From positions 78,678 to 142,677 of the forward strand of contig JBEPYO010000001.1 of the NCBI GenBank assembly GCA_041641295.1: DNA of 64,000 nucleotides, written 5' to 3'. The position numbers and the translations under genes were made by a program. The DNA comes from Nitrososphaerota archaeon. Its GTDB lineage: Archaea; Thermoproteota; Nitrososphaeria_A; Caldarchaeales; Calditenuaceae. Positions 3,879-62,083 of this stretch are shown here, piece by piece (position 1 is the stretch's first letter; every line of letters begins with the position of its first letter). Below the pieces are notes generated by a model. The model searched no databases, was not told the DNA's origin, and worked only from the letters and a program-made list of their open reading frames with translations.

Positions 3879-4742
3879 TTATTTGAGCGCCCCTAGGAGG
3901 AACCCTACTAAGCCTATGAGCATCCAGACTAGATATTCTGACTTGGTCTTTCTGCTTGTATCAGGGTCTCGAAGCAATCTAATGCTGGAGTATGTGAAAC
4001 CTGCGCACGCTATTGTGACTGGCGGTATGTAGAGGGGGCTCATAGCTCCGATGGCTATGGGAAGCGGACTTAGAGCAACGGCGGTGAAGACGAGGCCTGC
4101 ACCTAGTCTCGCCGCAGCATGTTTGCCATGTGTAATTGCATATGTCTTGACTCCGCGACTTCTATCACCCTCCACATCGGAGATCCCTTTGACGACCTCC
4201 CTCCCCATCCCGGCGAGGAAGGACATAGAGGATATAATGGCGACTGGTACGCCTACCGCGCCTTCAGCAAGTATTGCGCCGTAGATGTAGGGAGCGGATA
4301 TTGTGGCACTCACTGCCGCGTTGCCGACCAGTCCCGTCTTCTTTAGGAAGGTATTGTAGGCGAGTGCGAGGGCGTAGAATATAGCCGCCACCAACAGGGG
4401 GCTAGGACCCAAGAGAGCCGATGACGCCAACCCGGCGAGTCCGAGGAGGATTGAGAATGGGACTGCCTCGGAGACTTTGACCAGTCCTGAGGGTATGGGT
4501 CGACTGGGATTGTTGACGGCATCTATTTCCCTGTCTATGATGTCGTTCACAACCATGGATGAAGCCGTTAGACCATAGGCGGTAACCGCTGCGAAAACCC
4601 CCTCTAAAAGTGTGGGAATTCTGCCGCTCTGGACAAAATATCCCACGTAAACCGCGAAGATCATCATCAAGCCGTTTGGGGGACGTGTTATCTCTACGAA
4701 TCCCCTGATCCTCAGAGATTTGAGAGGTTCGTGTCTGTGCAT
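3879..4742 (-). CDS. UbiA-family prenyltransferase, probably digeranylgeranylglyceryl phosphate synthase-like
   Basis: Polytopic membrane protein. Asp-rich motif 'NDIIDREIDAVNNPSRPIPSG'. 287 aa. Confidence 0.6.
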   Translation of the reverse strand: MHRHEPLKSLRIRGFVEITRPPNGLMMIFAVYVGYFVQSGRIPTLLEGVFAAVTAYGLTASSMVVNDIIDREIDAVNNPSRPIPSGLVKVSEAVPFSILLGLAGLASSALLGPSPLLVAAIFYALALAYNTFLKKTGLVGNAAVSATISAPYIYGAILAEGAVGVPVAIISSMSFLAGMGREVVKGISDVEGDRSRGVKTYAITHGKHAAARLGAGLVFTAVALSPLPIAIGAMSPLYIPPVTIACAGFTYSSIRLLRDPDTSRKTKSEYLVWMLIGLVGFLLGALK

Positions 4743-9417: not shown

Positions 9418-10368
9418 TCACGCAGCCCGCGCCCCTTTCTCTTTTAACACCTTGATAAGAGCTGGAATGAACTGGTATAAGTCAATGGGGACCGAGTAGT
9501 CCGCCTCCCTATGGATGGGCGCCGAGGTGTCATTATTCACTGCAACAATTATCCTCGAATTCCTGACCCCCACCATGTGTTGCACCTGCCCCGATATTCC
9601 TATTGCGATGTAGAGCTGGGGGCTAATCCACTTACCAGACAGACCTACATGCTTTTCCTCAGGCATCCAGCCCAAGTCGCTTGCTATCGGCCTGCTACAC
9701 GCCAGCTCCGCGCCTAGAAGCTGGGCAAGATCCTCCGCCATCTTCAAGTCCTCCCGCCTCTTAAATCCGCGGCCGACAGAGACCACAACACGGGCCTTAG
9801 AGAGGTCGGCCCCTTTCCTCTCAATCTTTTCAACTGAGACGCGCCTCAGCCTCAAATTCTCTATAGACGGCCTACTGAGCCTCACAGTCTCAAAGCTGCC
9901 GCCCTCCCTCGCTTGTGGCCGCCTTCCTGTCAACTGAATTGTCAGAAGTGCTGGAAACTTCTTAATGGCTACTCTCTCAACATAGCCTCCCCCGAGGAAT
10001 GGTCTCTCAACTACGAGCCTCCCATCATTAAACTCTAGATTGGTGCAGTCCGTCAGGCATGGTGATGAAAGGTTCTGGGCTGTTCTCGCGAAGAGCTCTC
10101 TATAGATCTTCTTAGATGGTCCGATAACTAGTCCCGGCTCACTATTTCTCACTAGGTCGATAACAATTTTTTCAAGTCCCTCGGGTGGAATCTCGTCAAA
10201 ACCCTCTAGCAGATAGGCTCGCTTCAAACCAAGCGATGCGAGAGACTCCCCGTCAATCACGGCCTCTGGGATAAGCGCCTCCACGACCGAAGCTCCAATC
10301 TGGTCTGCGACAGCCCTCATCTCCAGTAGCTCGTCAAGCTCACCTGCCAAAATCAACACAGAAATCAA
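9418..10368 (-). CDS. etfA: Electron transfer flavoprotein alpha subunit
   Basis: FAD-binding C-terminal signature 'PQLYIAIGISGQVQHMVGVRNSRIIVAVNNDTSAPI'. Overlaps etfB by 4 nt. Confidence 0.85.
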   Translation of the reverse strand: MISVLILAGELDELLEMRAVADQIGASVVEALIPEAVIDGESLASLGLKRAYLLEGFDEIPPEGLEKIVIDLVRNSEPGLVIGPSKKIYRELFARTAQNLSSPCLTDCTNLEFNDGRLVVERPFLGGGYVERVAIKKFPALLTIQLTGRRPQAREGGSFETVRLSRPSIENLRLRRVSVEKIERKGADLSKARVVVSVGRGFKRREDLKMAEDLAQLLGAELACSRPIASDLGWMPEEKHVGLSGKWISPQLYIAIGISGQVQHMVGVRNSRIIVAVNNDTSAPIHREADYSVPIDLYQFIPALIKVLKEKGARAA

Positions 10369-11147
10369 ACCCTAAGCACCCCCTCCCGAACCAGACTCTC
10401 CACAAGCCTCTCAGCACACTCGAGAGGATCACCCTCCAACACAATGTTTCTGCGCGCAGTCTTCAAAGCCCGGACCGAGAGCCTCTCGACAAGCGGCTCC
10501 ACAAGATCCCTTTCTAGTCCCAGCTCTGAGAGGTCAACCCGCGTTATCGGCTTCTTAGACGCGGCCCTTATCATGAGTAGGCTTGGAAGCCTCGGAGAAG
10601 CCAGCTCTAGGCTGGCTGTTATTATTAGCGGCAGCTCAGACTCGAGGGTCTCTGTCCTATCCTCTAGGCTGCGTCTTACCCGTACTATGTTCCCACTCAA
10701 CTCGACGCTGACTGCATGTGTTATGCATGGTATTCCCATCGCCTCTGAGAGTCTGGGGCCGAGCTGGTAGTTCCCAGCGTCTGAGGATGCCTCACCGCAA
10801 AAGAGTATGTCCGCCCCTCCCGCCTTTTTTGAGAGCCTTGAGAGGACGTTTGCAGTAACCCATGCATCGGCCATAGAGAGCCTAGGATCGCTGACGTAGA
10901 AACACCTATCAGCACCCATGGCGAGGGCTTCGCGGAGGACAAGCTCGTTCACGGCGTCGCCGGCCGAGAGTACTACCACTTCACCGCCCCAGCCCTCCTT
11001 AATCCTTAGGGCAGCCTCTAATGCAACTAAGTCCGCCTCACCCAGCCTGAGTGTGGCCTTCTCAAGCCTCGGAGCCAGCGTAGAGGGGTCATATTCTAAG
11101 GTTGAGATGTCGGGAACCTGCTTTACAAATACGTGAATAACCGGCAA
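10365..11147 (-). CDS. etfB: Electron transfer flavoprotein beta subunit
   Basis: 'VKQVPD' N-terminus, 260 aa, immediately upstream of etfA on the same strand. Confidence 0.8.
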   Translation of the reverse strand: MPVIHVFVKQVPDISTLEYDPSTLAPRLEKATLRLGEADLVALEAALRIKEGWGGEVVVLSAGDAVNELVLREALAMGADRCFYVSDPRLSMADAWVTANVLSRLSKKAGGADILFCGEASSDAGNYQLGPRLSEAMGIPCITHAVSVELSGNIVRVRRSLEDRTETLESELPLIITASLELASPRLPSLLMIRAASKKPITRVDLSELGLERDLVEPLVERLSVRALKTARRNIVLEGDPLECAERLVESLVREGVLRV

Positions 11148-11282
11148 GTCTCGGTCTCAGAAAATCACCCGCCCATCCCATTATTTATAGTGGTGGACTC
11201 TACTTGGGCGCCTCAAGGGGTTTGATGACCCATTGTTGTAGGCCCCTGAGAAATAAATATTGGGAGAGGACAGGTCATTCCA

Positions 11283-11771
11283 ATGAACCTCTCTAGGCTG
11301 CCGCAAGAGGTTGAGGCTGTTTTAGAGGGAGCGCTCGTCGCGATTTTAACCGTCATTAACGAGAGGAATGAGCCTGTCTCACATCCCATGCTACCACTAT
11401 ATGACCGCGAGAAAGGCGTGCTCTACTTCACCTCGAGCATTCTGTTCAGCAAGAAGCTCGAACACATCAAGAAAAACCCGCGAGTCTCTGTACTAATATC
11501 TCAGCGTGAATATGTGAAGTCTGAGCAATACCACGCTGTCGAGATTAAAGGTGATGCAAGGGTACTAGACCGAGACTTAAGCCGTGAGTGGCAGAGGCTA
11601 TTACCCCTTTGGAGGAAGAAAGAGCCTTATATCGACGCATACGTTAAGCAGAGGTTTGCCCTGCCCCTCTTCTGGGAGAGGGCCATCATAGAGGTTCAGC
11701 CGAGAAAAGTAAGGGTCTGGCGCGACGGCGACCTAGAGAGGGAGCCCGAACATTATAGCCTTGGTGGGTAG
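11283..11771 (+). CDS. Pyridoxamine 5'-phosphate oxidase-like (PNPOx) FMN-binding split-barrel protein
   Basis: 162 aa. 'ALVAILTVINERNEPVSHPM...KKNPRVSVLISQ' is typical of PNPOx-like or F420-binding split barrels. Confidence 0.5.
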   Translation: MNLSRLPQEVEAVLEGALVAILTVINERNEPVSHPMLPLYDREKGVLYFTSSILFSKKLEHIKKNPRVSVLISQREYVKSEQYHAVEIKGDARVLDRDLSREWQRLLPLWRKKEPYIDAYVKQRFALPLFWERAIIEVQPRKVRVWRDGDLEREPEHYSLGG

Positions 11772-11773
11772 GG

Positions 11774-13093
11774 ATGATCCAGATCGACGATTTGAGGAAG
11801 TTTGAGCAGGTTGCGATGGCTTTCATCGACGAAGACGGATACCCCTCGACGATACCTCTGGTCACCAGTAGACTGGACGGGGACGTTAAGCTTAAGCTGC
11901 CAAGAGGCATAGAGGGTGGCAAGGTTGAGGGCAAAAAGGTCAATCTCATATTAAATCACATTACGCCACTTCCCGCGGGCGGATATACAGACCGGCGGTA
12001 CATAGTCTTCAGAGGCCTATCCCGAGTGAGGGACGACACCCTCAGTGTAGAGATGGAGAAAGTCTATACCTGGGACGAGAGAACGACACCATTTCCAGAA
12101 TATGTTGAGGTCTCGACATCGAGGGCTAGGCGATATCTTGAGGGGATCGGGAAGAGGCTTGGAGAAACTTTTAGACCAAGCATAGGTGCCTTCTGGAGCT
12201 TTTTCAGGACGGTGCGGCTACCATTCCTAATTGCGACGGCTGTACCGGTCGCGATTGGAGCGGGTGCTGCATTTTATAGAGGGTTCTTCGACCCGATACT
12301 CCTACTCCTAACGCTCCTGGGCCTCTCATGCATACATTTGGCACTGAATGTGGCAAACGATTATTTCGATACTATCTTGGGCGCCGACACAGCCAACAGG
12401 AGACCCACACCATTCAGCGGAGGGTCAAGAGCGATAATATACGGCATCGTCAACATGCAGGAGGCTAGATTGATCTATACATCCCTTTTCGTAGGTGGTG
12501 TGGTTACAGGCGCATATTTGGCGGTCACTAGAGGCTTGTTAGAGATTGCAATACTCACCGGTCTCGGATTGTTTCTCTCATACTTCTATACTGCGCCACC
12601 GCTTAAGCTGGCCTATAGGGGGCTTGGTGAAGTTGCAGTATTCCTCGGCTTCGGCCCAATAATCGTCCTTGGAACATATTTCGTCCAGACCCAGAGCATA
12701 GGCCTAGATGCTGTAGCCGCCTCGATACCTATAGGCCTCTTGATTATGCTGATACTCTACGTTAACGAGATACCGGACGCGCCATATGACAGGGAGGCGG
12801 GGAAGATGACCCTCCTTACAAGGTTCACGAAGGCGCAGGCATTATTCTTTCTCGCCGCCTCGTTCACAGCCACGTATCTAAGCATCTCCCTGATACCCCT
12901 ACTCAATTTAGGGCCAGCATCCGTGATGATAGCTCTTGCCGGAGCCCCTCTCGCCTATCGCGTCTATAGGGGTGTTAAACAGAACTACGGCGACCCCTAC
13001 CGGATGATTGGTGTCATGTCTCTAAACGTGAAGACCGCTGCGATAACAGGTTCTCTCCTAGCAGCAGGCTACTTTATCGGTGCAGCCCTATAA
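11774..13093 (+). CDS. Fusion protein: an N-terminal PNPOx-like split-barrel domain of about 130 aa joined to a MenA-type UbiA polyprenyltransferase
   Basis: N-terminal domain 'AFIDEDGYPSTIPLVTSRL...'. Membrane domain has the first Asp-rich motif 'NVANDYFDTILGADTANRR' and the second motif 'YVNEIPDAPYDREAGKMTL', with 8-9 hydrophobic segments. Confidence 0.6.
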   Translation: MIQIDDLRKFEQVAMAFIDEDGYPSTIPLVTSRLDGDVKLKLPRGIEGGKVEGKKVNLILNHITPLPAGGYTDRRYIVFRGLSRVRDDTLSVEMEKVYTWDERTTPFPEYVEVSTSRARRYLEGIGKRLGETFRPSIGAFWSFFRTVRLPFLIATAVPVAIGAGAAFYRGFFDPILLLLTLLGLSCIHLALNVANDYFDTILGADTANRRPTPFSGGSRAIIYGIVNMQEARLIYTSLFVGGVVTGAYLAVTRGLLEIAILTGLGLFLSYFYTAPPLKLAYRGLGEVAVFLGFGPIIVLGTYFVQTQSIGLDAVAASIPIGLLIMLILYVNEIPDAPYDREAGKMTLLTRFTKAQALFFLAASFTATYLSISLIPLLNLGPASVMIALAGAPLAYRVYRGVKQNYGDPYRMIGVMSLNVKTAAITGSLLAAGYFIGAAL

Positions 13094-14518
13094 CCCGCGA
13101 CTATTTCGCCGCTGCATCTCTACCACCCTAAGGTCAGGCCACTTAATTCTGAGGGCAAGTGGAATGTTAATGATTGATAGGGCCCATGCGATGCCGAAGG
13201 AAATAATGCTGGGGTAATAAATCGTCTCAAGGGAGCCGAGTGCTATGGGAGCGTTGGCGAAGGGGGCCCACATGGTCTGTGAGCCGAGAGATCCGCCGAA
13301 GCTTCTGAAGAAGGTCAGAATAGAGGTTAGAAAGCCAAGCTCTGCTGAGGTGGCTAAAGTCTGAATCGTGATCAATGTCGTGGGGACGGTTAAGCCCATG
13401 GAGGTGCCCACCATTATGAGCGGCGGTATCAGGAGCCAATAGCTCGGGGCAAGAATGTTTGTAGCTATTAGGAGCGTGAGCGCTGCAAGAAAAAGGCCGA
13501 CTCCTGTCTTGATCATGGGGCCTGGCCCATACTTGACTATGAGGCGTGAAGAAATGTTTGCAGCGAGAACCCATCCTAGGGTTGTGGGGGCCATAAGTAG
13601 ACCAGCCGCTGTAGGGGGTAAACCATAGAACCATTGAAGAATAGGGGGTATTACGGTTACTGTGCCGAAGAATGAGAAGCCTATCACTCCATTGATTGCG
13701 AACAATGTGAAATTCAGTCTGTCTGATAAGAGTCTGAACGGTATGAAAGGTGTTCTCTCCGCCCTTTCAACGCGTATGAAGAGGGGGGTAGCGATAAGAG
13801 CTACAATTGCTGTAAGCGATACTGCCTGCCAGCCGAGTAGTGGGGCGTCGATTAGCAGGAGGAGGCAGGTCGCGATTATTGTAAATAGTATGAACCCTTT
13901 TGTGTCGAGGCTTCTGTCCCTCTGCCTTGACCCCAGCCCCTTTAGGCTCTTCATCCCCATTACAAGGGCAACCAGCGCGGGCGGGATGTTAATGAGATAG
14001 ACCCAACGCCACCCAAGCGCGTCTACTATCATCCCACCCATCGGCGGGCCGAGAATGCTACCAACAGCCCAGACAGTTGAAGTATATCCTGTTACACGTC
14101 CCCTTTCCTCAAGCGTGAACAGGTCCCCAATAATGGTGAACGTTAAGGCGAATATAGCCCCCGACCCTATACCCTGCAATAGTCTGAAAAGCACGAGCGT
14201 CTCCATGCTCCACGATATCCCACACAGGAGAGAGGCAACTAGGAAAACCACTAGGCCGGTGTTATAGATCAGCCGCCTCCCATACAGGTCTGATAGCCTG
14301 CCCCAAACCGGTATCGAGATTGTAGACGAGAAGATGAAGATCGTGATAGGCCAGTTGTAGAGTGCTTGGCCTCCGAGCTCGAGGACAGCCCGGGGCATCG
14401 CGATGGGAACGATAGTACCCTCTAATGAGGCCATGAATAGGCCCGTGATAAGACCAATCAGAATGCGCCACTTATTTAGGGGGCCATCAGCCACGCAATT
14501 TGAGGCAGTTATAGCCAA
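13088..14518 (-). CDS. Major facilitator superfamily transporter, 14-TM drug:H+ antiporter-like
   Basis: 476 aa and highly hydrophobic. MFS motif 'GRLSDLYGRR'. Confidence 0.7.
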   Translation of the reverse strand: MAITASNCVADGPLNKWRILIGLITGLFMASLEGTIVPIAMPRAVLELGGQALYNWPITIFIFSSTISIPVWGRLSDLYGRRLIYNTGLVVFLVASLLCGISWSMETLVLFRLLQGIGSGAIFALTFTIIGDLFTLEERGRVTGYTSTVWAVGSILGPPMGGMIVDALGWRWVYLINIPPALVALVMGMKSLKGLGSRQRDRSLDTKGFILFTIIATCLLLLIDAPLLGWQAVSLTAIVALIATPLFIRVERAERTPFIPFRLLSDRLNFTLFAINGVIGFSFFGTVTVIPPILQWFYGLPPTAAGLLMAPTTLGWVLAANISSRLIVKYGPGPMIKTGVGLFLAALTLLIATNILAPSYWLLIPPLIMVGTSMGLTVPTTLITIQTLATSAELGFLTSILTFFRSFGGSLGSQTMWAPFANAPIALGSLETIYYPSIISFGIAWALSIINIPLALRIKWPDLRVVEMQRRNSRGL

Positions 14519-17269: not shown

Positions 17270-18361
17270 GTGAATAAATATTTATTTGAAGTGTGGGATA
17301 GAATTTTGAAAGTAATGAGCAGCAGAGAAGAACTTGCCAAAAAATTCCTTGTTAGGAAGTTGAGGCCGATTGAAATAGGTGAGAAAAGTATTAGTCAATT
17401 GCTGGACTCGATGGCTATGACGGGCTTTCAAGGCCGTAGGCTCGGAGAGGTTGTGAAGGTTTGGGAAACGGCATGTAGAACAGAGAATACCGTGATATTC
17501 CTAGGGCTCGCGGGTTCTCTAAGCACGACGGGGCAGAGCGAGATAGTAAAATTCCTCATAAGAAACAGGTTCATCGACGTACTTGTCTCAACCGGTGCAA
17601 ACATAACGGAAGACCTAGTGGAAGCACTTGGCGCCAACTATTACATGGGAGAGCCAAACCTCGACGATTCCGAGCTGTTTAAGGCAGGCATCTATAGATT
17701 CCACGACGTCTTGGTAAGGGATGTAGACTACTTTAAGATGGAAAAGATGCTCGCGGATTTCATGGCGCAGCTTGACCGTACCAAGGTCTATTCTTCAGCC
17801 AAGTTTCTGAATCAGCTTGGGGCTTGGCTTGACGGAAAGGGGGTTAATGGTATTCTGACAGAAGCGTGGAGAAGTGGTGTTCCCGTCTTCTCACCGGCAC
17901 TTGTAGACTCGGGTATGGGGGTAGCATACCTTCTAAACAAGTATCGGCATGGTGAGGGTTTCAAACTCTTGATAGACCATTTCGCCGATTATGAATTAAT
18001 CGTCAAGATAAAGGCGAAATTTGCCGACAGTGCAGCGATCTTTATCGGGGGTGGTGTTCCCAAGGACTTCATACAGCTTGCAGCTGTGGCAGTCGATGTT
18101 CTACTCTCCGGCGACTTATCCAAATACAGGCCTCACAGGTTCGCAGCACAGATAACCACAGACAGCCCCCACTGGGGAGGCCTCTCCGGCGCCACATTGG
18201 ATGAGGCTAAGAGCTGGGGGAAAGAGAGCCCGGACAGCATGACCGTTCAGTGCTTCTGCGACGCCACAATCGGGCTCCCACTCGTGGCTCATGCCCTCTA
18301 CGAGAAGCTAGGGCGAAGAAAAGACCCGCCTGACCTCAGCTGGGTGTTTAAGGAAGGCTAA
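17270..18361 (+). CDS. Deoxyhypusine synthase-like protein, a divergent paralogue. The start may be the internal Met at 17315.
   Basis: DHS fold with 'GGGVPKDF' in place of the canonical GGGxxKHH. The catalytic-Lys region 'EAKSWGKES' is retained. 363 aa. Confidence 0.7.
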   Translation: MNKYLFEVWDRILKVMSSREELAKKFLVRKLRPIEIGEKSISQLLDSMAMTGFQGRRLGEVVKVWETACRTENTVIFLGLAGSLSTTGQSEIVKFLIRNRFIDVLVSTGANITEDLVEALGANYYMGEPNLDDSELFKAGIYRFHDVLVRDVDYFKMEKMLADFMAQLDRTKVYSSAKFLNQLGAWLDGKGVNGILTEAWRSGVPVFSPALVDSGMGVAYLLNKYRHGEGFKLLIDHFADYELIVKIKAKFADSAAIFIGGGVPKDFIQLAAVAVDVLLSGDLSKYRPHRFAAQITTDSPHWGGLSGATLDEAKSWGKESPDSMTVQCFCDATIGLPLVAHALYEKLGRRKDPPDLSWVFKEG

Positions 18362-19311
18362 CCGAGGAGGACAGACGCTAATAGGGGAAGAATCAAGGTG
18401 GCGTCTCCGTAGATTGTGACTTTTCTAGCGTGGGTTTTCAGTTTGCCCCAGCTTATGGCCTCCTTCAGTGGCGCCCCTGTCAGGCTTCCATCCCACTCGT
18501 TCCCGGTCGTGACGTAGACTGCATAGTCTAGGCCACCCCCAAACTGGTTCAGCCACAAGAGGTGATGCTTGCTTATTCCACCCCCTATTATGAGGCCGCC
18601 CCTCCTGACCTCTTTGAAGAGGTTATCGGAGAGCCTGTCATAGTCCCTGAAGAGATTTAGCCTAAAGTCTCGATGCGTTGTGTGAAACATCCAGAGCTGG
18701 GTTCCAGCGGCACCATCCATTATACCGGGGACTACCACGTCCACGTTAGCCTCAGCGGCAGCCCTTAAAATCGACCCCTCTGGAAGACGCCTCCCTATCT
18801 CCCTAGCAAGCTCGATAGTCCCAATCTCTCTCACCCCCTTGTCGTAAAGCTCGTTCAGTAGACCGAGCATGAAGCGCTCAATCGCGAGCCCGTAGTTCTC
18901 CTCAGGCACAATGACCGAGCCGACACGGTGTAGTCCATGCTCACGGAGCTCCCCATCATCCAACTCGAAGGCGCCCTTGTAATAGTTGCCCAGACTCCTT
19001 GCAATGTCATGGTCAATGGTCCCGCAGGTAGTCACCACGTATTTGAAGATTCCTCGCCTTATGATGCTGGCCAAGACGCCTCTTAGACCGGTGGCTGTGA
19101 GGGAGCCTACGAAAGAGAGCCATCGCACACATTCCCGGTCACTAACCATCTCTCTAAGTATTCTGCACCCTTCAGCAAGGTAACTGGCCATAAATCCTCC
19201 CGAGGCTGCGAAATGCTCCACTAGATTGCTTATCGTTGTGTCGGCTGAGAGGGTGTAGTCCTTAACAGGCTCCTCTCCTTTGAAACCGCCCCTCCTATCC
19301 TTATATCTCAC
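18358..19311 (-). CDS. dys: Deoxyhypusine synthase, canonical
   Basis: 'IIGGGISKHHLLWLN' and the catalytic-Lys motif 'EAISWGKLK'. 317 aa. Convergent with the paralogue and overlapping it by 4 nt. Confidence 0.75.
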   Translation of the reverse strand: MRYKDRRGGFKGEEPVKDYTLSADTTISNLVEHFAASGGFMASYLAEGCRILREMVSDRECVRWLSFVGSLTATGLRGVLASIIRRGIFKYVVTTCGTIDHDIARSLGNYYKGAFELDDGELREHGLHRVGSVIVPEENYGLAIERFMLGLLNELYDKGVREIGTIELAREIGRRLPEGSILRAAAEANVDVVVPGIMDGAAGTQLWMFHTTHRDFRLNLFRDYDRLSDNLFKEVRRGGLIIGGGISKHHLLWLNQFGGGLDYAVYVTTGNEWDGSLTGAPLKEAISWGKLKTHARKVTIYGDATLILPLLASVLLG

Positions 19312-58028: not shown

Positions 58029-59513
58029 ATGAGAAGTCCCAAGACTAGAATCTACAGCGTCTGCGTCGCCATCTTCTTCTGCACTGCCATTCTGACCGTT
58101 GCAGCCTATGCCCAGCAGCAAATTGTTTACGCAGATGTTCCGGGGAATCCGCCACCGGGTGCCACACCCAATAAGCGATTCCTCCTAATCACGTCTGAAA
58201 ATGATGTCCTGATAGATGATGGTGTAGTCTTCAAGGCTTGGACCTTCAACGGCACTGTCCCAGGGCCGCTGATCTTGGTGGAGGAGGGTGATGTTGTCGA
58301 GATAACCGTGAAGAATGAGGGCAAGTATACGCATGGCGCCTCCATTCACGCTGCAAATACTCAGACATCCCTCTTCGTCGGCAGCATCCCGCCAGGTGAG
58401 TCGCGTAAGCTAGTCTTCAAGGCAGACTTCCCCGGCGTATACATGTACCACTGCGCGCCGGGTGGCCATGGAATCCTAACCCACACACTAGCGGGGATGT
58501 ATGGAATGATTGTCGTTGAACCTAAGAAGGTGAAGTACAAGTTGGAGGAGCAGTTAGGAAAAGAGCCAGACATAAAGGTCTTTCTAGTCCAACACGAGGT
58601 CTACGCTAATGGTAAGGACTTCACCGATGGTAGCCCAGTATACGTAATGTTCAACGGGAGAATGTTCAGATATTTGACTGAGCCGATCAAGGCGCGACCC
58701 GGAGACTACGTGAGATTCTACTTCTTGAACGTAGGACCGAACCTAGTGTCCAGTTTCCACGCCGTGGGTGGGATCTGGGAATACGTGTACCACGGCGGAA
58801 ACCCAAACAATGTTGAGGAGGGGCTGCAGACAGTCACAGTAGGGCCAACAGACTCCTATGTCATAGAGTGGAGAGTGCCCTCTGAAGGGAACTTCCTGCT
58901 AGTGACACATGCCTTTGGAACACAGACGCTTAAAGGAGCGGCGGGCTTCCTTTCCTCGAAGGTGGGCAACGAGAGGGTTAGTATGGTTTTGCCGAACGGC
59001 CCGTTACCGCCTCCACAAATCCAATCCGCAAAGAGGGTAATAGCCCCCTTCGAGCCAACCCCCGAGGAGCGTGAAGCACCCACCACCTTCTATCCCGGCG
59101 ACACAGTTGTGGTGCGGATAGTGGGTAACAGTTTCTACCCCAAGGTTGCGCGAGTTCCTACAGGCTCAAAGATTGTCTGGGTGAATGAGGATGTCTTGAG
59201 CATAGGCTCAGGCGAGGTTACTGGCCAACACAACGTGGCGACTGTCTCAGGACCCGAGACTTTCACTTCAGAGATACTTAAGAATGCTGAGAAGTTTGCT
59301 TTCACACCCACGAAAGAGGGTACCTACAGCTATATCTGCGGAATACACCCCTACATGAAGGGCGAGATAATTGTCTACAAGGCAGCGGCGTTAGGCGGAG
59401 TTGGTCCGACGATAGACCTGACATCCATCCTCGCATTTATTATAGGAATAGGGATTATCATTATGGCGATTGACCTCGGCCGGAGGAGCCGGACAAGACA
59501 AGAGACCAAATGA
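58029..59513 (+). CDS. NirK-type (copper-containing nitrite reductase-like) two-domain multicopper protein, fused to a C-terminal cupredoxin (plastocyanin/pseudoazurin-like) domain and a C-terminal TM anchor. The start is taken at the Met preceding the signal peptide; the ORF is open from 57930.
   Basis: Signal 'MRSPKTRIYSVCVAIFFCTAILTVAAYAQQ'. Type-1/type-2 Cu ligand pattern 'THGASIHAA ... VYMYHCAPGGHGILTHTLAGMYGMIVVEP'. Domain II 'SSFHAVGGIWEYVY...LVTHAFG'. Cupredoxin 'GQHNVA...YICGIHPYMKGEIIVY'. C-terminal 'ILAFIIGIGIIIMAIDLG'. Confidence 0.65.
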   Translation: MRSPKTRIYSVCVAIFFCTAILTVAAYAQQQIVYADVPGNPPPGATPNKRFLLITSENDVLIDDGVVFKAWTFNGTVPGPLILVEEGDVVEITVKNEGKYTHGASIHAANTQTSLFVGSIPPGESRKLVFKADFPGVYMYHCAPGGHGILTHTLAGMYGMIVVEPKKVKYKLEEQLGKEPDIKVFLVQHEVYANGKDFTDGSPVYVMFNGRMFRYLTEPIKARPGDYVRFYFLNVGPNLVSSFHAVGGIWEYVYHGGNPNNVEEGLQTVTVGPTDSYVIEWRVPSEGNFLLVTHAFGTQTLKGAAGFLSSKVGNERVSMVLPNGPLPPPQIQSAKRVIAPFEPTPEEREAPTTFYPGDTVVVRIVGNSFYPKVARVPTGSKIVWVNEDVLSIGSGEVTGQHNVATVSGPETFTSEILKNAEKFAFTPTKEGTYSYICGIHPYMKGEIIVYKAAALGGVGPTIDLTSILAFIIGIGIIIMAIDLGRRSRTRQETK

Positions 59514-60124
59514 CCAGAAAATACTTCTACGCAACAATAATACTCTTCTTAACCTCCGCTTTTATGTTTTATACCGCATTGTCATCATTCAGATCACCAA
59601 CAGAGCCGCAGACAGGTGTTGTTGTAAGCGGTAAACCACTACCAGATTTCTCACTAGTTAGCCAAGACAATCAGAGCTTCAGCCTACAAAAAGTTGCGGG
59701 AAGACCAGTTATCCTCTTCTTCGGATACACAAGCTGCCCCGACGTCTGCCCCCTAGCCATGAGAAAAATCGCGGCGTCGCTAAAAGCTCTAGGCCCCGAG
59801 AGGGGGGACTTCGCGGTCATTTTCATAACCGTGGATCCGGTGCGCGACACCCCCTCCATCCTAGCCAAGTGGGTCTCACAATACTATCCCGGGACGATAG
59901 CCCTTACAGGTGATCTGGAGGAGTTGGGTAGGGTATGGAGGGCTTATGGAGCTGCCAACCCCGATGACTATGGGTCGGCTGCTAAGAGTGGCGACACATA
60001 CTACATCAGCCATAGCGCAGTCATATATGTGGCGGACCGCAACCACGTGCTTCGATATATCCTAACCCCGGAGATGGATACGGAGGCTTTCAGGCAGGTC
60101 CTTGAAGAGATCCACCGGTCTTAG
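59510..60124 (+). CDS. SCO1/SenC-family thioredoxin-like copper chaperone
   Basis: N-terminal TM, then 'ILFFGYTSCPDVCPLAMRKI' (CxxxC) and a downstream conserved His region. 204 aa. Overlaps the upstream gene by 4 nt. Confidence 0.75.
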   Translation: MTRKYFYATIILFLTSAFMFYTALSSFRSPTEPQTGVVVSGKPLPDFSLVSQDNQSFSLQKVAGRPVILFFGYTSCPDVCPLAMRKIAASLKALGPERGDFAVIFITVDPVRDTPSILAKWVSQYYPGTIALTGDLEELGRVWRAYGAANPDDYGSAAKSGDTYYISHSAVIYVADRNHVLRYILTPEMDTEAFRQVLEEIHRS

Positions 60125-60181
60125 CCGCGACTCGATAGGCCAGAATAAGCGGGTTAAAATACTGACATTTCGTGTTCTCTA

Positions 60182-62083
60182 ATGATGCTTGAGGCGTGGC
60201 TAATCTGGTTGTTACCGATGACAGCTGCCTTCCTTGTCCCAGGCCTCGTTAAGATATCGAGGAGGGCTGGGGAGGTTTTCTCCGTTCTTGTGGTAGCTAC
60301 CTCAGCTATTCTAACAATCACACTACTCCCTCGCGTCTGGGGAGGAAAGAGTATCCAGACTGACATAGCATGGATAGGCCTACCTGGGGGCGGCTCAGTC
60401 CGACTAGGGGTTCTCCTTGACCCGCTATCAGTCGTCATGGCACTTATTGCCACGGGTATAGGGACCCTCATCATGCTTTACTCGATCGGCTACATGAACC
60501 ATGAGGAGGGGGTTGGCCGATACTTCTTCTTCATGACACTCTTCATAGGTGGTATGGTTCTTCTAGTCACCTCGTCAAACCTGCTTGGCATGTATATTGG
60601 CTGGGAGATTGTTGGAATCTGTAGCTATGCCCTGATCGGATACTATGTCCACAGGAGGGAGGCTAGAGAGGCCGCTATCAAAGCCTTCATAACTACTAGG
60701 ATTGGTGATGTTCTTCTTTTCGCCTCCATTCTCATCACATTTGCCGTATTTAATACGTTGGAATTTACCGAGCTAAGACTGGCTATTGAGGAGAGGGCGG
60801 CGGCCGGACATCTTGACATGGGACTCTTGACGCTGATCCTCCTACTCGCCTTCGGGGGGGCCATGGGGAAGTCTGCCCAGTTCCCACTCCACGTATGGCT
60901 TCCAGACGCCATGGAGGGCCCCACACCCGTCTCCGCTCTAATACATGCAGCCACTATGGTGAAGGCGGGTGTCTACTTGGTGGCCAGATACAGCTTCACA
61001 ATGGTTCCCTTCGAGCATTTCACCCCCGCACAGCTCTCAAGCTGGTATACTATGATAGCGACGATAGGAGGTTTCACAGCTCTCTTCGCAGCGAGCATGG
61101 GACTCGTCACCAACGATATTAAGCGCGTTATCGCCTACTCGACGATCAGCCAGCTGGCCCTCATGTTCACCGCACTTGGGGTCGGGACTGCTGCGGGATG
61201 GTTCGGAGGTGTTTTCCACCTGGTCAGCCACTCGATATTCAAGGCGCTACTCTTCCTCGCATCGGGGGTAGTAATACACTACCTTGGCACGAACAACATC
61301 GATGAGATGGGCGGATTGAGAAGGGTTATGCCCATTACATTCTACACTGCTACGGTTGGCGTTTTAGCTCTTTCAGGAATTCCACCCTTCAACGGCTTTT
61401 TCAGCAAGGACATTGTGTTGGGAGCGCTCTTGGAGAGTGGTGCTTGGATCCCACTCCTGTTTGTGGCCTCGGCTTCAATCCTAACGGTGATCTATAGCTT
61501 CCGTTGGCTGGCCAAGGTTTTCCTAGGGGAGATGAGGCATCATGGAGGGGAGCACGGCCACGCCGAGTCGTATAAAACCATGACAACACCATTGGTAATC
61601 CTTGCGGCGCTCACCCTGACGGGTTTACCACCATTCGAAGAAGTTCTACACGACTTTATAGGAATCCACGAGGAAATCAAAATACCCCCAGCAACGTACG
61701 CCATCTCGGCGGGAATCGTCGTTACCGGCTTCACCATTGCCTATCTATTCTATATTAGGCGGGCATGGAGTCCAGAGGCTGTACGCCAAGCCCCCCTCAT
61801 GTCTGCAATCCACTCGCTCCTAGTGAACAGATACTACATTGACGCGGCGTACAAGATGGTCTTTGTGGACGGGTTTACAAGGCTATCAGCACTGATAAGA
61901 AGGGGGTTGGAGGAGAAGGTGATAGATGGCATAAACTATGCAGCGGCAAGGGGGTTCCAGAAGATAGTAGACGTGATCCGATACATACAGACGGGGAGCA
62001 GCAACCTCAACATTAGCGGCGTAGCTATAGGCCTAGTAATCTTGCTACTTCTTCTCTTAGTGGGGCTTGCGGGCATCCTATAA
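60182..62083 (+). CDS. Proton-pumping complex I antiporter-like subunit, NuoL/ND5 (MrpA) family, stand-alone
   Basis: 'GYMNHEEGVGRYFFFMTLFIGGMVLLVTSSNLLGMYIGWEIVGICSYALIGYY' and 'HVWLPDAMEGPTPVSALIHAATMVKAGVYLVAR'. 633 aa, about 16 TM segments plus a long C-terminal helix region. Confidence 0.8.
   Translation: MMLEAWLIWLLPMTAAFLVPGLVKISRRAGEVFSVLVVATSAILTITLLPRVWGGKSIQTDIAWIGLPGGGSVRLGVLLDPLSVVMALIATGIGTLIMLYSIGYMNHEEGVGRYFFFMTLFIGGMVLLVTSSNLLGMYIGWEIVGICSYALIGYYVHRREAREAAIKAFITTRIGDVLLFASILITFAVFNTLEFTELRLAIEERAAAGHLDMGLLTLILLLAFGGAMGKSAQFPLHVWLPDAMEGPTPVSALIHAATMVKAGVYLVARYSFTMVPFEHFTPAQLSSWYTMIATIGGFTALFAASMGLVTNDIKRVIAYSTISQLALMFTALGVGTAAGWFGGVFHLVSHSIFKALLFLASGVVIHYLGTNNIDEMGGLRRVMPITFYTATVGVLALSGIPPFNGFFSKDIVLGALLESGAWIPLLFVASASILTVIYSFRWLAKVFLGEMRHHGGEHGHAESYKTMTTPLVILAALTLTGLPPFEEVLHDFIGIHEEIKIPPATYAISAGIVVTGFTIAYLFYIRRAWSPEAVRQAPLMSAIHSLLVNRYYIDAAYKMVFVDGFTRLSALIRRGLEEKVIDGINYAAARGFQKIVDVIRYIQTGSSNLNISGVAIGLVILLLLLLVGLAGIL

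Follow-up and report, generated by a model that had tools for sequence, protein, structure and literature searches.

A conserved pair of adjacent genes, of which one encodes a stand-alone split β-barrel protein (ORF1) and the other a membrane prenyltransferase fused to a second, highly divergent barrel domain (ORF2), suggests that quinone biosynthesis includes an undescribed accessory step, probably a redox one. Many archaea and Gram-positive bacteria use menaquinone as their chief respiratory quinone, and the prenyltransferase MenA, which adds the lipid tail to quinones of this vitamin K type, is a drug target. The pair lies in a 64-kb window (the whole stretch of DNA that was analysed) from a member of the Calditenuaceae. 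The features of the locus, in window coordinates, are the following.

11252–11261, forward strand: A/T-rich, TATA-box-like element AAATAAATAT, read from the sequence, about 25 nt before the ORF1 ATG
11283–11771, forward strand: ORF1, 162 aa, with an ATG start and a TAG stop at 11769–11771
11763–11768, forward strand: Shine–Dalgarno-like GGTGGG within the end of ORF1, 6–11 nt ahead of the ORF2 ATG
11774–13093, forward strand: ORF2, 439 aa, with an ATG start, one unbroken gene
11774–12193, forward strand: N-domain (ORF2 aa 1–140), divergent split β-barrel followed by two helices, belonging to no Pfam family
11954–12001, forward strand: signature hairpin NHITPLPAGGYTDRRY (aa 61–76), the most conserved stretch of the N-domain
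12194–13093, forward strand: UbiA-fold prenyltransferase domain (aa 141–439), nine transmembrane (TM) helices, nearest to MenA/UBIAD1
12356–12403, forward strand: first Asp-rich motif NDYFDTILGADTANRR (aa 195–210), at the cytoplasmic end of TM2
12764–12811, forward strand: second Asp-rich motif NEIPDAPYDREAGKMT (aa 331–346), at the cytoplasmic end of TM6

The arrangement of ORF1 and ORF2 is best explained as one two-gene operon. The genes are separated by a 2-nt spacer (GG), and the ORF2 ATG is located 3 nt past the ORF1 stop, just as the preliminary description of this DNA had it. Together with the GGTGGG element, this short spacer suggests translational coupling; in high-GC relatives (actinobacteria), the ORF1 stop and the start of the fused gene overlap as ATGA. 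The divergent genes etfB (reverse strand) and ORF1 are 135 bp apart, and this interval contains the element AAATAAATAT, which, judging by typical archaeal promoter geometry, is a putative promoter, and its position suggests that the ORF1 transcript may be leaderless or near-leaderless.

The C-terminal part of ORF2 belongs to the UbiA superfamily, as judged by the Pfam UbiA score of aa 157–409 (PF01040, 100.5 bits versus a cut-off of 34.2, E 1.2e-28), the nine helices, and the presence of both Asp-rich motifs. In the first motif, N195, D196, D199, D205, and N208 are invariant among 76 homologues, and so are D335, D339, and K344 in the second. The best NCBIfam matches are MenA models (E 3.7e-43 to 1e-20), while chlorophyll synthase and other generic prenyltransferase models score E 1e-5 or worse, and the models for MqnP (present in the library), UbiA, and heme O synthase give no match at E ≤ 1. 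Structure 8djk of UBIAD1, the homologue of MenA in animals, is the only PDB sequence match of ORF2 (E 8e-14), and UBIAD1 is also its top fold match (TM 0.81), Foldseek additionally returning ApUbiA, AfUbiA, and DGGGPS. The polytopic MenA-type enzyme with two Asp-rich motifs that had been proposed from the sequence is thus borne out as regards the fold and the nearest relatives. Of the UbiA subfamilies, MenA/UBIAD1 is the one nearest to ORF2, but ORF2 falls short of the MenA equivalog cut-offs (TIGR00751, 100.2 versus 102.15; NF004751, 148.2 versus 264; the remaining NCBIfam MenA models, even further below), so the MenA assignment is one by closest resemblance, and the enzyme may use an aromatic substrate other than DHNA.

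Like MenA and UBIAD1, ORF2 has a nine-helix UbiA fold whose cytoplasmic side carries the motifs N-D-x-x-D...D and N-x-x-x-D-x-x-x-D. Unlike MenA, it bears an N-terminal split barrel of 140 aa that the matched MenA models (280–320 positions) do not span, and this domain is likewise outside the span of the solved UBIAD1 chain (301 aa). A further difference is the obligate pairing of the fused gene with a PNPOx-like one. The counts of K+R are 3, 2, 3, and 1 in the loops on the side of the N-terminus and 1, 0, 0, 0, and 0 on the opposite side; therefore, by the positive-inside rule, the N-domain and both Asp-rich motifs lie in the cytoplasm, which answers the earlier question about the side occupied by the split barrel: it shares the face of the active site. 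The AF2 model of full-length ORF2 (pLDDT 91.5, pTM 0.85) suggests, by its pTM, a defined mutual arrangement of the two domains.

ORF1 had been described as a PNPOx-like split barrel, and it indeed passes the Pfam PNPOx_N cut-off (35.7 bits versus 28.1, span aa 6–146). In an alignment to PNPOx and GSP26 structures, its FTSSxLFSKK loop coincides with the FMN-phosphate loop of E. coli PNPOx: FTSSILFSKKLEHIKKNPRVS aligns with YTNLGSRKAHQIENNPRVS, the S-K-K of ORF1 matching S-R-K of PNPOx. A set of 27 homologues keeps T50, S51, S52, and K58 without exception (883 homologues of ORF1 were collected in total), and the loop residues presumably bind the cofactor phosphate, as they do in PNPOx structures. 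The scores of ORF1 are far below the F420-class cut-offs (TIGR03618, 34.3 versus 79.05; TIGR03667, 27.2 versus 125.3), and among its closest matches (PNPOx, GSP26) are oxidases as well as proteins without a known function. ORF1 is proposed to be the cofactor-bearing partner of the N-domain.

The second split barrel, said to open ORF2, was more difficult to recognize. The peptides quoted in its support and in support of the prenyltransferase, AFIDEDGYPSTIPLVTSRL (aa 16–34), NDYFDTILGADTANRR, and NEIPDAPYDREAGKMT, are all located in ORF2. No Pfam or NCBIfam model matched the N-terminal 139 aa at E ≤ 1, and a search of PDB sequences with the N-domain family profile (hmmsearch) gave nothing relevant. 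This failure of the first 130 residues to hit any profile, which by itself would speak against a split barrel, is overturned by the AF2 fold and by profile–profile comparison. The AF2 model of the domain (pLDDT 80.7) is returned by the fold search as a split β-barrel, with prenyl-FMN maturase among the matches, and hhalign aligns the N-domain with the ORF1 family at a probability of 91.4% (E 9e-7, 87 columns in register), compared with 0.1% for the reversed ORF1 profile and 0.1% for the UbiA domain as controls. By this comparison, the N-domain is a remote, very divergent homologue of the ORF1 split barrel. Twelve of its residues (G22, P24, H62, G70, Y71, R74, Y76, W100, E102, F107, E112, and Y121) are invariant across sequences that are 29–79% identical. 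Five of them, H62, G70, Y71, R74, and Y76, belong to the hairpin NHITPLPAGGYTDRRY, in which I63, P65, P67, and R75 are conserved in at least 90% of sequences and which has no counterpart in ORF1 or PNPOx. As no Pfam model detects the N-domain, it merits a family definition of its own.

The proposal that the fused domain is itself of a flavin/deazaflavin type finds no support, since all profiles failed and the phosphate loop is deleted: in the hhalign alignment, a gap of seven residues in the N-domain lies opposite SSILFSKK of ORF1. For the same reasons, the N-domain may be purely structural or ligand-binding, and any redox cofactor more likely sits in ORF1, to which the N-domain would contribute the other half of a heterodimer. 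Relatives of the PNPOx/FDOR group (PNPOx, general stress protein 26, and Rv1155-type F420 PPOX) share PNPOx_N and the phosphate loop with ORF1 and the fold with the N-domain. Unlike the pair described here, known members of the group are soluble homodimers, whereas here a cofactor-competent and a cofactor-deficient paralogue occur together, one of them fused to a membrane enzyme; in addition, the N-domain stands outside any described family.

The reading preferred here, to which a probability of about 0.5 is assigned, is that ORF1 and ORF2 encode a late-stage prenylation unit of menaquinone-type (naphthoquinone) biosynthesis whose heterodimeric split-barrel module performs a coupled redox step. 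Split-barrel flavoproteins are obligately dimeric and bind the cofactor between the subunits, and the phosphate loop is kept in ORF1 and lost from the N-domain. ORF1 would therefore dock on the N-domain to form a pair of barrels in which a single site, for FMN or F420, is functional. The pair would be tethered beside the prenyltransferase active site on the cytoplasmic face, where its redox step might be coupled to prenylation. By analogy, the most likely reaction would be the conversion of the naphthoquinone head group, or of freshly prenylated demethylmenaquinone, to the quinol, the form that is the nucleophile for prenyl transfer and also the substrate of the UbiE/MenG methyltransferase. 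As to the cofactor, F420 biosynthesis genes have been listed in Actinomycetota, Chloroflexota, Methylomirabilota/Rokubacteria, and TACK archaea (PMC8498797), and the lineages that carry the module are among those listed there. Calditenuis, from the same family as the organism of the window, is a predicted F420 maker (PMC4681859). To our knowledge, no split-barrel flavoprotein heterodimer on a membrane prenyltransferase has been known before, so this one, if real, would be the first.

The nearest analogies for such a step come from two systems. The FDOR-A/Ddn split-barrel enzymes reduce menaquinone with F420H2 (PMC8498797), and the mycobacterial members, acting as split barrels on naphthoquinones at the membrane, may serve as a working model for the pair (PMC8498797). 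Unlike Ddn, neither ORF1 nor the N-domain matches the Ddn-type Pfam family (F420H2-dependent quinone reductase) at E ≤ 1, and Ddn feeds the respiratory chain and is unlinked to MenA. Phylloquinone synthesis depends on the dedicated reductase NdbB/NDC1, which reduces the prenylated naphthoquinone ahead of methylation by MenG (PMC5299476, citing Fatihi 2015); a reductase between the MenA and MenG steps would occupy the very position proposed here. In contrast to ORF1 and the N-domain, NdbB/NDC1 has a type II NAD(P)H dehydrogenase fold, and it is neither fused to MenA nor encoded in a MenA operon. If the proposed role is true, Caldarchaeales, Bathyarchaeia, Gaiellales-type Actinomycetota, and Chloroflexota possess an extra dedicated component of the late pathway, whose analogue in plants and cyanobacteria would be the NdbB/NDC1 step, unrelated in fold.

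A non-redox accessory role is an unlikely alternative to the coupled redox step. In that case, the N-domain, with or without ORF1, would be a cofactor-less barrel that takes no part in electron transfer. It would bind the aromatic head group (or some regulatory ligand) and hand it to the prenyltransferase, or else stabilise or cap the enzyme. The loss of the phosphate loop from the N-domain leaves room for it, but the loop retained in ORF1 and its PNPOx_N score are hard to explain without a flavin-type cofactor, and the strict pairing of a cofactor-competent with a cofactor-deficient barrel suits a heterodimeric enzyme better than a carrier.

It may also be imagined, tentatively and with rather low probability, that the pair represents an unrecognised and phylogenetically wide variant of late menaquinone biosynthesis, in which ORF1 and the N-domain would act as a heterodimeric reductase (using F420H2 or reduced flavin) mounted on the prenyltransferase. 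An oxidised or non-carboxylated naphthoquinone head group would then be taken, reduced in place, and prenylated, in effect by a redox-gated route like that of UBIAD1, and the system could supply late pathway steps in F420-making archaea and actinobacteria.

Improbable is a product other than menaquinone, with the MenA-like domain prenylating another aromatic acceptor that the split-barrel module makes or holds. Among the acceptors that might be considered are a UBIAD1-style non-carboxylated naphthoquinol, an intermediate of the futalosine pathway, and a phenazine-, flavin-, or heme-derived ring. The missed MenA cut-offs and UBIAD1 as the nearest structure agree with such a role, as do the activity of PhzG, a PNPOx relative, in phenazine synthesis, the prenyl-FMN maturase among the fold matches, and a gene for a Rieske ring-hydroxylating oxygenase alpha subunit that follows the pair in 10 actinobacterial loci. 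On the other side, the top family matches are all MenA, and the remaining subfamilies match poorly or, like MqnP, not at the threshold used. MqnP, which acts in menaquinone synthesis in some archaea and actinobacteria, is an enzyme of the UbiA superfamily like ORF2, but its partners are of the UbiX/UbiD type and not split barrels.

The genomic context argues further against another acceptor. In approximately 16–22 actinobacterial loci, the co-directional order is Rieske–cytochrome b–cytochrome b(C)/c–UbiE–long-chain polyprenyl synthase–ORF1–fused gene, with UbiE passing TIGR01934; in these loci, the linkage with UbiE/MenG and the polyprenyl synthase resembles that expected of MenA. Such an operon, combining UbiE, the polyprenyl synthase, and a bc-type complex, points to the main respiratory quinone, and coupled redox and prenylation would plausibly fit this context, the argument being drawn from one bacterial clade. 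The window and the other archaeal loci contain no late menaquinone or other quinone genes near the pair, and neither classical men nor futalosine mqn genes occur within the 64 kb; the archaeal loci have no conserved neighbour in common except ORF1. In high-GC loci, several of the neighbour clusters proved to be antisense or spurious ORFs that have no Pfam match. The ETF genes that adjoin the pair in the window are retained in the closest Calditenuaceae relatives only.

That ORF1 is independent of ORF2, i.e., a flavoprotein of the general-stress or PNPOx-like kind that only happens to share the operon, with the N-domain as an inert relic of duplication, is quite improbable, although JGI labels ORF1 homologues as “general stress protein 26”. 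In each of the 77 loci for which upstream DNA is available, the gene immediately preceding the fused one, in the same orientation, is an ORF1 homologue. This adjacency is kept in Archaea and in four or more bacterial phyla, although every other neighbour varies. An inert relic would hardly keep the 12 invariant residues at such levels of divergence. Moreover, ORF1-like and N-domain-like genes persist as pairs without a UbiA domain, overlapping at one locus (L088), abutting at another (L089), and joined into a 310-aa tandem at a third (L087), so that the two-barrel pair looks like an older unit.

The fusion itself is widespread: more than 100 protein clusters (435–460 aa, at least 97% query coverage) combine N-domain and UbiA, as do 78 of the top 80 genome loci (the best 80 of 573 matches), and every complete strong match to the N-domain profile runs on into a UbiA domain. 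Because the architecture recurs so often, it is regarded as a real gene and not a calling artefact. Its carriers include Caldarchaeales, other Nitrososphaeria, and Bathyarchaeia, in line with the expectation that it would be met in other archaea, and also Actinomycetota, Chloroflexota, and Methylomirabilota. The fusion is restricted neither to archaea nor to the quinones of thermophiles, the best 80 loci being mostly from soil-type Actinomycetota and Chloroflexota. Literature searches on MenA with a split barrel or PNPOx, on futalosine late-step genes, and on menaquinone or futalosine in Aigarchaeota and Nitrososphaera, yielded no paper describing the architecture, as had been supposed at the outset. 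In databases, the fused proteins are named plainly “MenA” or “prenyltransferase”; in hundreds of genomes, the annotation thus passes over the obligate partner gene and a third of the protein itself.

A frameshift or missed stop merging two genes is refuted for ORF2: nothing in the window supports it, the gene is unbroken, with neither stop nor frameshift from 11774 to 12170, and the identical protein is encoded on several independent assemblies.

Artefacts of this kind do occur in relatives, where ORF1, the N-domain, and UbiA seem to form triple fusions (L067, 617 aa; L044, 620 aa; and several representative proteins). As Rosetta-stone cases these would have spoken strongly for physical association, but they are probably due to indels. 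The alignment of junction DNA with five relatives reveals a 1-nt insertion in L067, just ahead of the ATGA stop/start overlap, and L044 has a frameshift within ORF1, both sequences being long-read MAGs. P0300 and P0321 contain garbled stretches, and none of these apparent triple fusions is counted as evidence.

ORF1, which encodes a stand-alone split-barrel protein related to PNPOx, and the fused gene ORF2 directly downstream occupy the following place in the window.

9418-10368, minus strand: etfA, electron-transfer flavoprotein
10365-11147, minus strand: etfB, electron-transfer flavoprotein
11283-11771, plus strand: ORF1, 162 aa, intact
11774-13093, plus strand: ORF2, 439 aa, intact
13088-14518, minus strand: MFS transporter

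ORF1 and ORF2 are spaced by 2 nt. Because the sequence reads GGTGGG 6-11 nt before the ORF2 start and has an A/T-rich box about 25 nt before that of ORF1, the arrangement fits a two-gene operon with translational coupling. The genes flanking the pair on both sides form separate units. The divergent etfB/etfA pair (9418-11147) upstream has a 135-bp intergenic region in common with ORF1; only the closest Calditenuaceae relatives (loci L005-L007) share its adjacency to ORF1, so that a functional link between the ETF genes and the quinone module, though possible, is not supported. On the other side, the MFS gene is convergent with ORF2, and the 3′ ends of the two share 6 nt. An MFS gene is also present a short way upstream of the pair in Caldarchaeum loci L011-L013, L015, and L017, in a position and orientation unlike those in the window.

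The preliminary description took ORF2 for a single gene joining a second PNPOx-like domain to a MenA-type UbiA prenyltransferase, an architecture not recognized as described, and the three peptides quoted there are all present in ORF2 (aa 16-34, 195-210, and 331-346). That this is indeed one gene is borne out by the intact frame, by an identical protein on several independent assemblies (one contig being 1.55 Mb), and by a scan covering a single genome for each species, in which 78 of the best 80 loci examined, out of 573 relatives, carry the fused gene. The nearest named relative (83% identity) comes from a Candidatus Calditenuaceae archaeon, a member of the group once called Aigarchaeota. 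At least 120 full-length homologues (435-460 aa, coverage of at least 97%) exist, these being all of the best 120 protein-search matches. Carriers among the best loci include archaea (Caldarchaeales/Calditenuaceae, other Nitrososphaeria, Bathyarchaeia), Actinomycetota (Gaiellales, Thermoleophilia, Acidimicrobiia), Chloroflexota (Dehalococcoidia, Limnocylindria), Methylomirabilota, and Dormibacterota. A profile of the soluble N-domain (ORF2 aa 1-140) matched only 153 of 1.84 billion representative proteins, and each complete strong match runs on into a UbiA domain. By these comparisons, the N-domain/UbiA fusion is real, old, and widespread.

The prenyltransferase part (aa 157-409) passes Pfam UbiA. 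All of the best NCBIfam matches of ORF2 are MenA models (E down to 3.7e-43), but the protein stays below the curated cut-off of every one of them, the nearest miss being TIGR00751 (100.2 vs 102.15); the MqnP models of the same library gave no match. UBIAD1 is the sole solved structure matched by the sequence (E 8e-14) and also heads the fold matches obtained with the full-length model (TM 0.81). The proposed MenA-type identity thus holds in part: judged by its sequence, this relative of the MenA family falls short of the curated equivalog thresholds. In databases the protein is named “1,4-dihydroxy-2-naphthoate octaprenyltransferase” or “prenyltransferase”.

The N-terminal 139 residues of ORF2 match no Pfam or NCBIfam model at E ≤ 1, and a search of PDB sequences with the family profile gave nothing relevant; judged by the refuting condition set in the preliminary description, the split-barrel assignment would thus be lost. 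However, an AlphaFold model built from an alignment of 38 N-domain sequences (pLDDT 80.7) has seven strands followed by two helices, and an independent profile-profile comparison with the ORF1-family alignment gave a probability of 91.4% (E 9e-7) for 87 aligned columns that begin in register, vs 0.1% for both the reversed ORF1 profile and the UbiA domain. The N-domain is thus a split barrel as predicted, belonging to the PNPOx-like superfamily only by fold and profile-profile homology. Its invariant signature comprises NHITPLPxGGYTDRRY, W100-D-E102, F107, E112, and Y121.

ORF1 itself is a PNPOx-like superfamily member by profile, as initially proposed: it passes Pfam PNPOx_N (35.7 bits vs a cut-off of 28.1), F420-type PPOX-class NCBIfam models match weakly, below cut-off, and its homologues are named “general stress protein 26” or “PNPOx family protein”. 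Its stretch SSILFSKK aligns with LGSRK of E. coli PNPOx, the loop that holds the FMN phosphate in PNPOx structures. Since a 7-residue gap in the N-domain lies opposite SSILFSKK, ORF1, unlike the N-domain, seems equipped to bind a cofactor; the supposed flavin/deazaflavin-type fused domain has retained the fold but lost the counterpart of the phosphate loop.

In the full-length ORF2 model (pLDDT 91.5, pTM 0.85), nine helices cross the membrane. Lys+Arg counts are 3, 2, 3, and 1 in the loops on the N-terminal side and 1, 0, 0, 0, and 0 in those on the opposite side, so that the positive-inside rule predicts a cytoplasmic location for the N-domain as well as for the two Asp-rich motifs. By simple helix parity, the modeled N-domain and active site share one membrane side whatever the absolute orientation.

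Among the best 80 loci, each of the 77 with upstream DNA has an ORF1 homologue immediately before the fused gene and on the same strand. The linkage is seen in bacteria and archaea and even on 2-4 kb contigs; in archaea the ORF1 homologue is the only conserved neighbor of the fused gene. Among distant relatives, barrels of the ORF1-like and N-domain-like kinds are found paired in the absence of a prenyltransferase, as overlapping genes (L088, 316-1159), abutting genes (L089, 3-713), or a complete 310-aa tandem protein (L087, 1469-2401), the small N-domain-like proteins of such pairs matching no Pfam family. This suggests that the barrel pair already existed as a unit when it was recruited to a MenA-like enzyme. 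Two apparent ORF1/N-domain/UbiA single ORFs, L067 (9482-11335) and L044 (9488-11350), are probably products of long-read indel errors: compared with five relatives, the former has 1 extra nt immediately ahead of the ATGA stop/start overlap, and the latter has a frameshift within ORF1.

A co-directional cluster that ends with the pair is present in about 16-22 actinobacterial loci, where it encodes, in order, a Rieske protein, cytochrome b (N), cytochrome b (C)/cytochrome c, UbiE, polyprenyl synthase, ORF1, and the fused protein. The UbiE passes TIGR01934 (219.6 bits vs 158.35), and the synthase is closest to long-chain (hepta-, octa-, solanesyl-type) models. This gene content ties the pair to synthesis of a respiratory quinone feeding a bc-type complex. 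In ten actinobacterial loci (L024 at 11706-12740, L039, L042, L044, L059, L061, L063, L076, L079, and L084), the start of the fused gene is followed at 1.4-3.6 kb by the gene for a Rieske-type ring-hydroxylating oxygenase alpha subunit, which in most of them comes directly after the fused gene; the subunit may modify an aromatic head group or be unrelated.

The 64-kb window contains no men or mqn genes. Quinone-linked and related genes elsewhere in it are as follows.

3879-4742, minus strand: second UbiA-family gene, 287 aa
30313-31834, minus strand: succinate dehydrogenase-like Fe-S subunit and cytochrome b subunit
58029-62083, plus strand: multicopper oxidase, SCO1-like protein, and NuoL-like antiporter subunit

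Because quinone-using complexes are encoded here (the succinate dehydrogenase-like cluster and the NuoL-like subunit), the source organism, by gene content, needs a membrane quinone. The second UbiA gene best matches archaeal prenyltransferase and geranylgeranylglycerol-phosphate geranylgeranyltransferase models (244 bits vs a cut-off of 269) and is likely a membrane-lipid DGGGP synthase, not a second quinone prenyltransferase.

Comparison and modeling show a MenA/UBIAD1-like prenyltransferase with a predicted cytoplasmic split-barrel domain, obligatorily co-encoded with a paralogous split-barrel protein, ORF1, predicted to be cofactor-competent. Split-barrel flavoproteins are dimers with the cofactor at the interface; because of this, and because the phosphate loop is kept in one paralogue and lost in the other, ORF1 and the N-domain may form a heterodimer with one working cofactor site beside the prenyltransferase cap. 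By analogy, the module could couple a redox step to prenylation. Reduction to quinol would be the likeliest step, since the nucleophile in prenyl transfer has to be a hydroquinone and the quinol is what UbiE/MenG methylates. Two precedents support this suggestion: a dedicated reductase, NdbB/NDC1, is required at precisely this stage of phylloquinone synthesis (PMC5299476), and F420H2-dependent reduction of menaquinone is carried out by split-barrel enzymes of the Ddn type (PMC8498797). The cofactor of the ORF1 site would be FMN or F420. F420 biosynthesis genes have been reported in Actinobacteria, Chloroflexi, Rokubacteria, and TACK archaea (PMC8498797), matching the taxa that carry the module, and Calditenuis has been predicted to make F420 but to import riboflavin (PMC4681859).

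The components belong to known families, the MenA relatives and the PNPOx-like superfamily; no description of their fusion or of the conserved pairing with ORF1 was found in the literature. By sequence, the architecture is real, conserved, and unannotated, and a coupled-redox role for it would be plausible by analogy. Elsewhere in the window, two deoxyhypusine-synthase-family genes (17270-18361, plus strand, 363 aa; 18358-19311, minus strand, 317 aa) lie tail to tail with a 4-nt overlap, an unusual paralogue pair.
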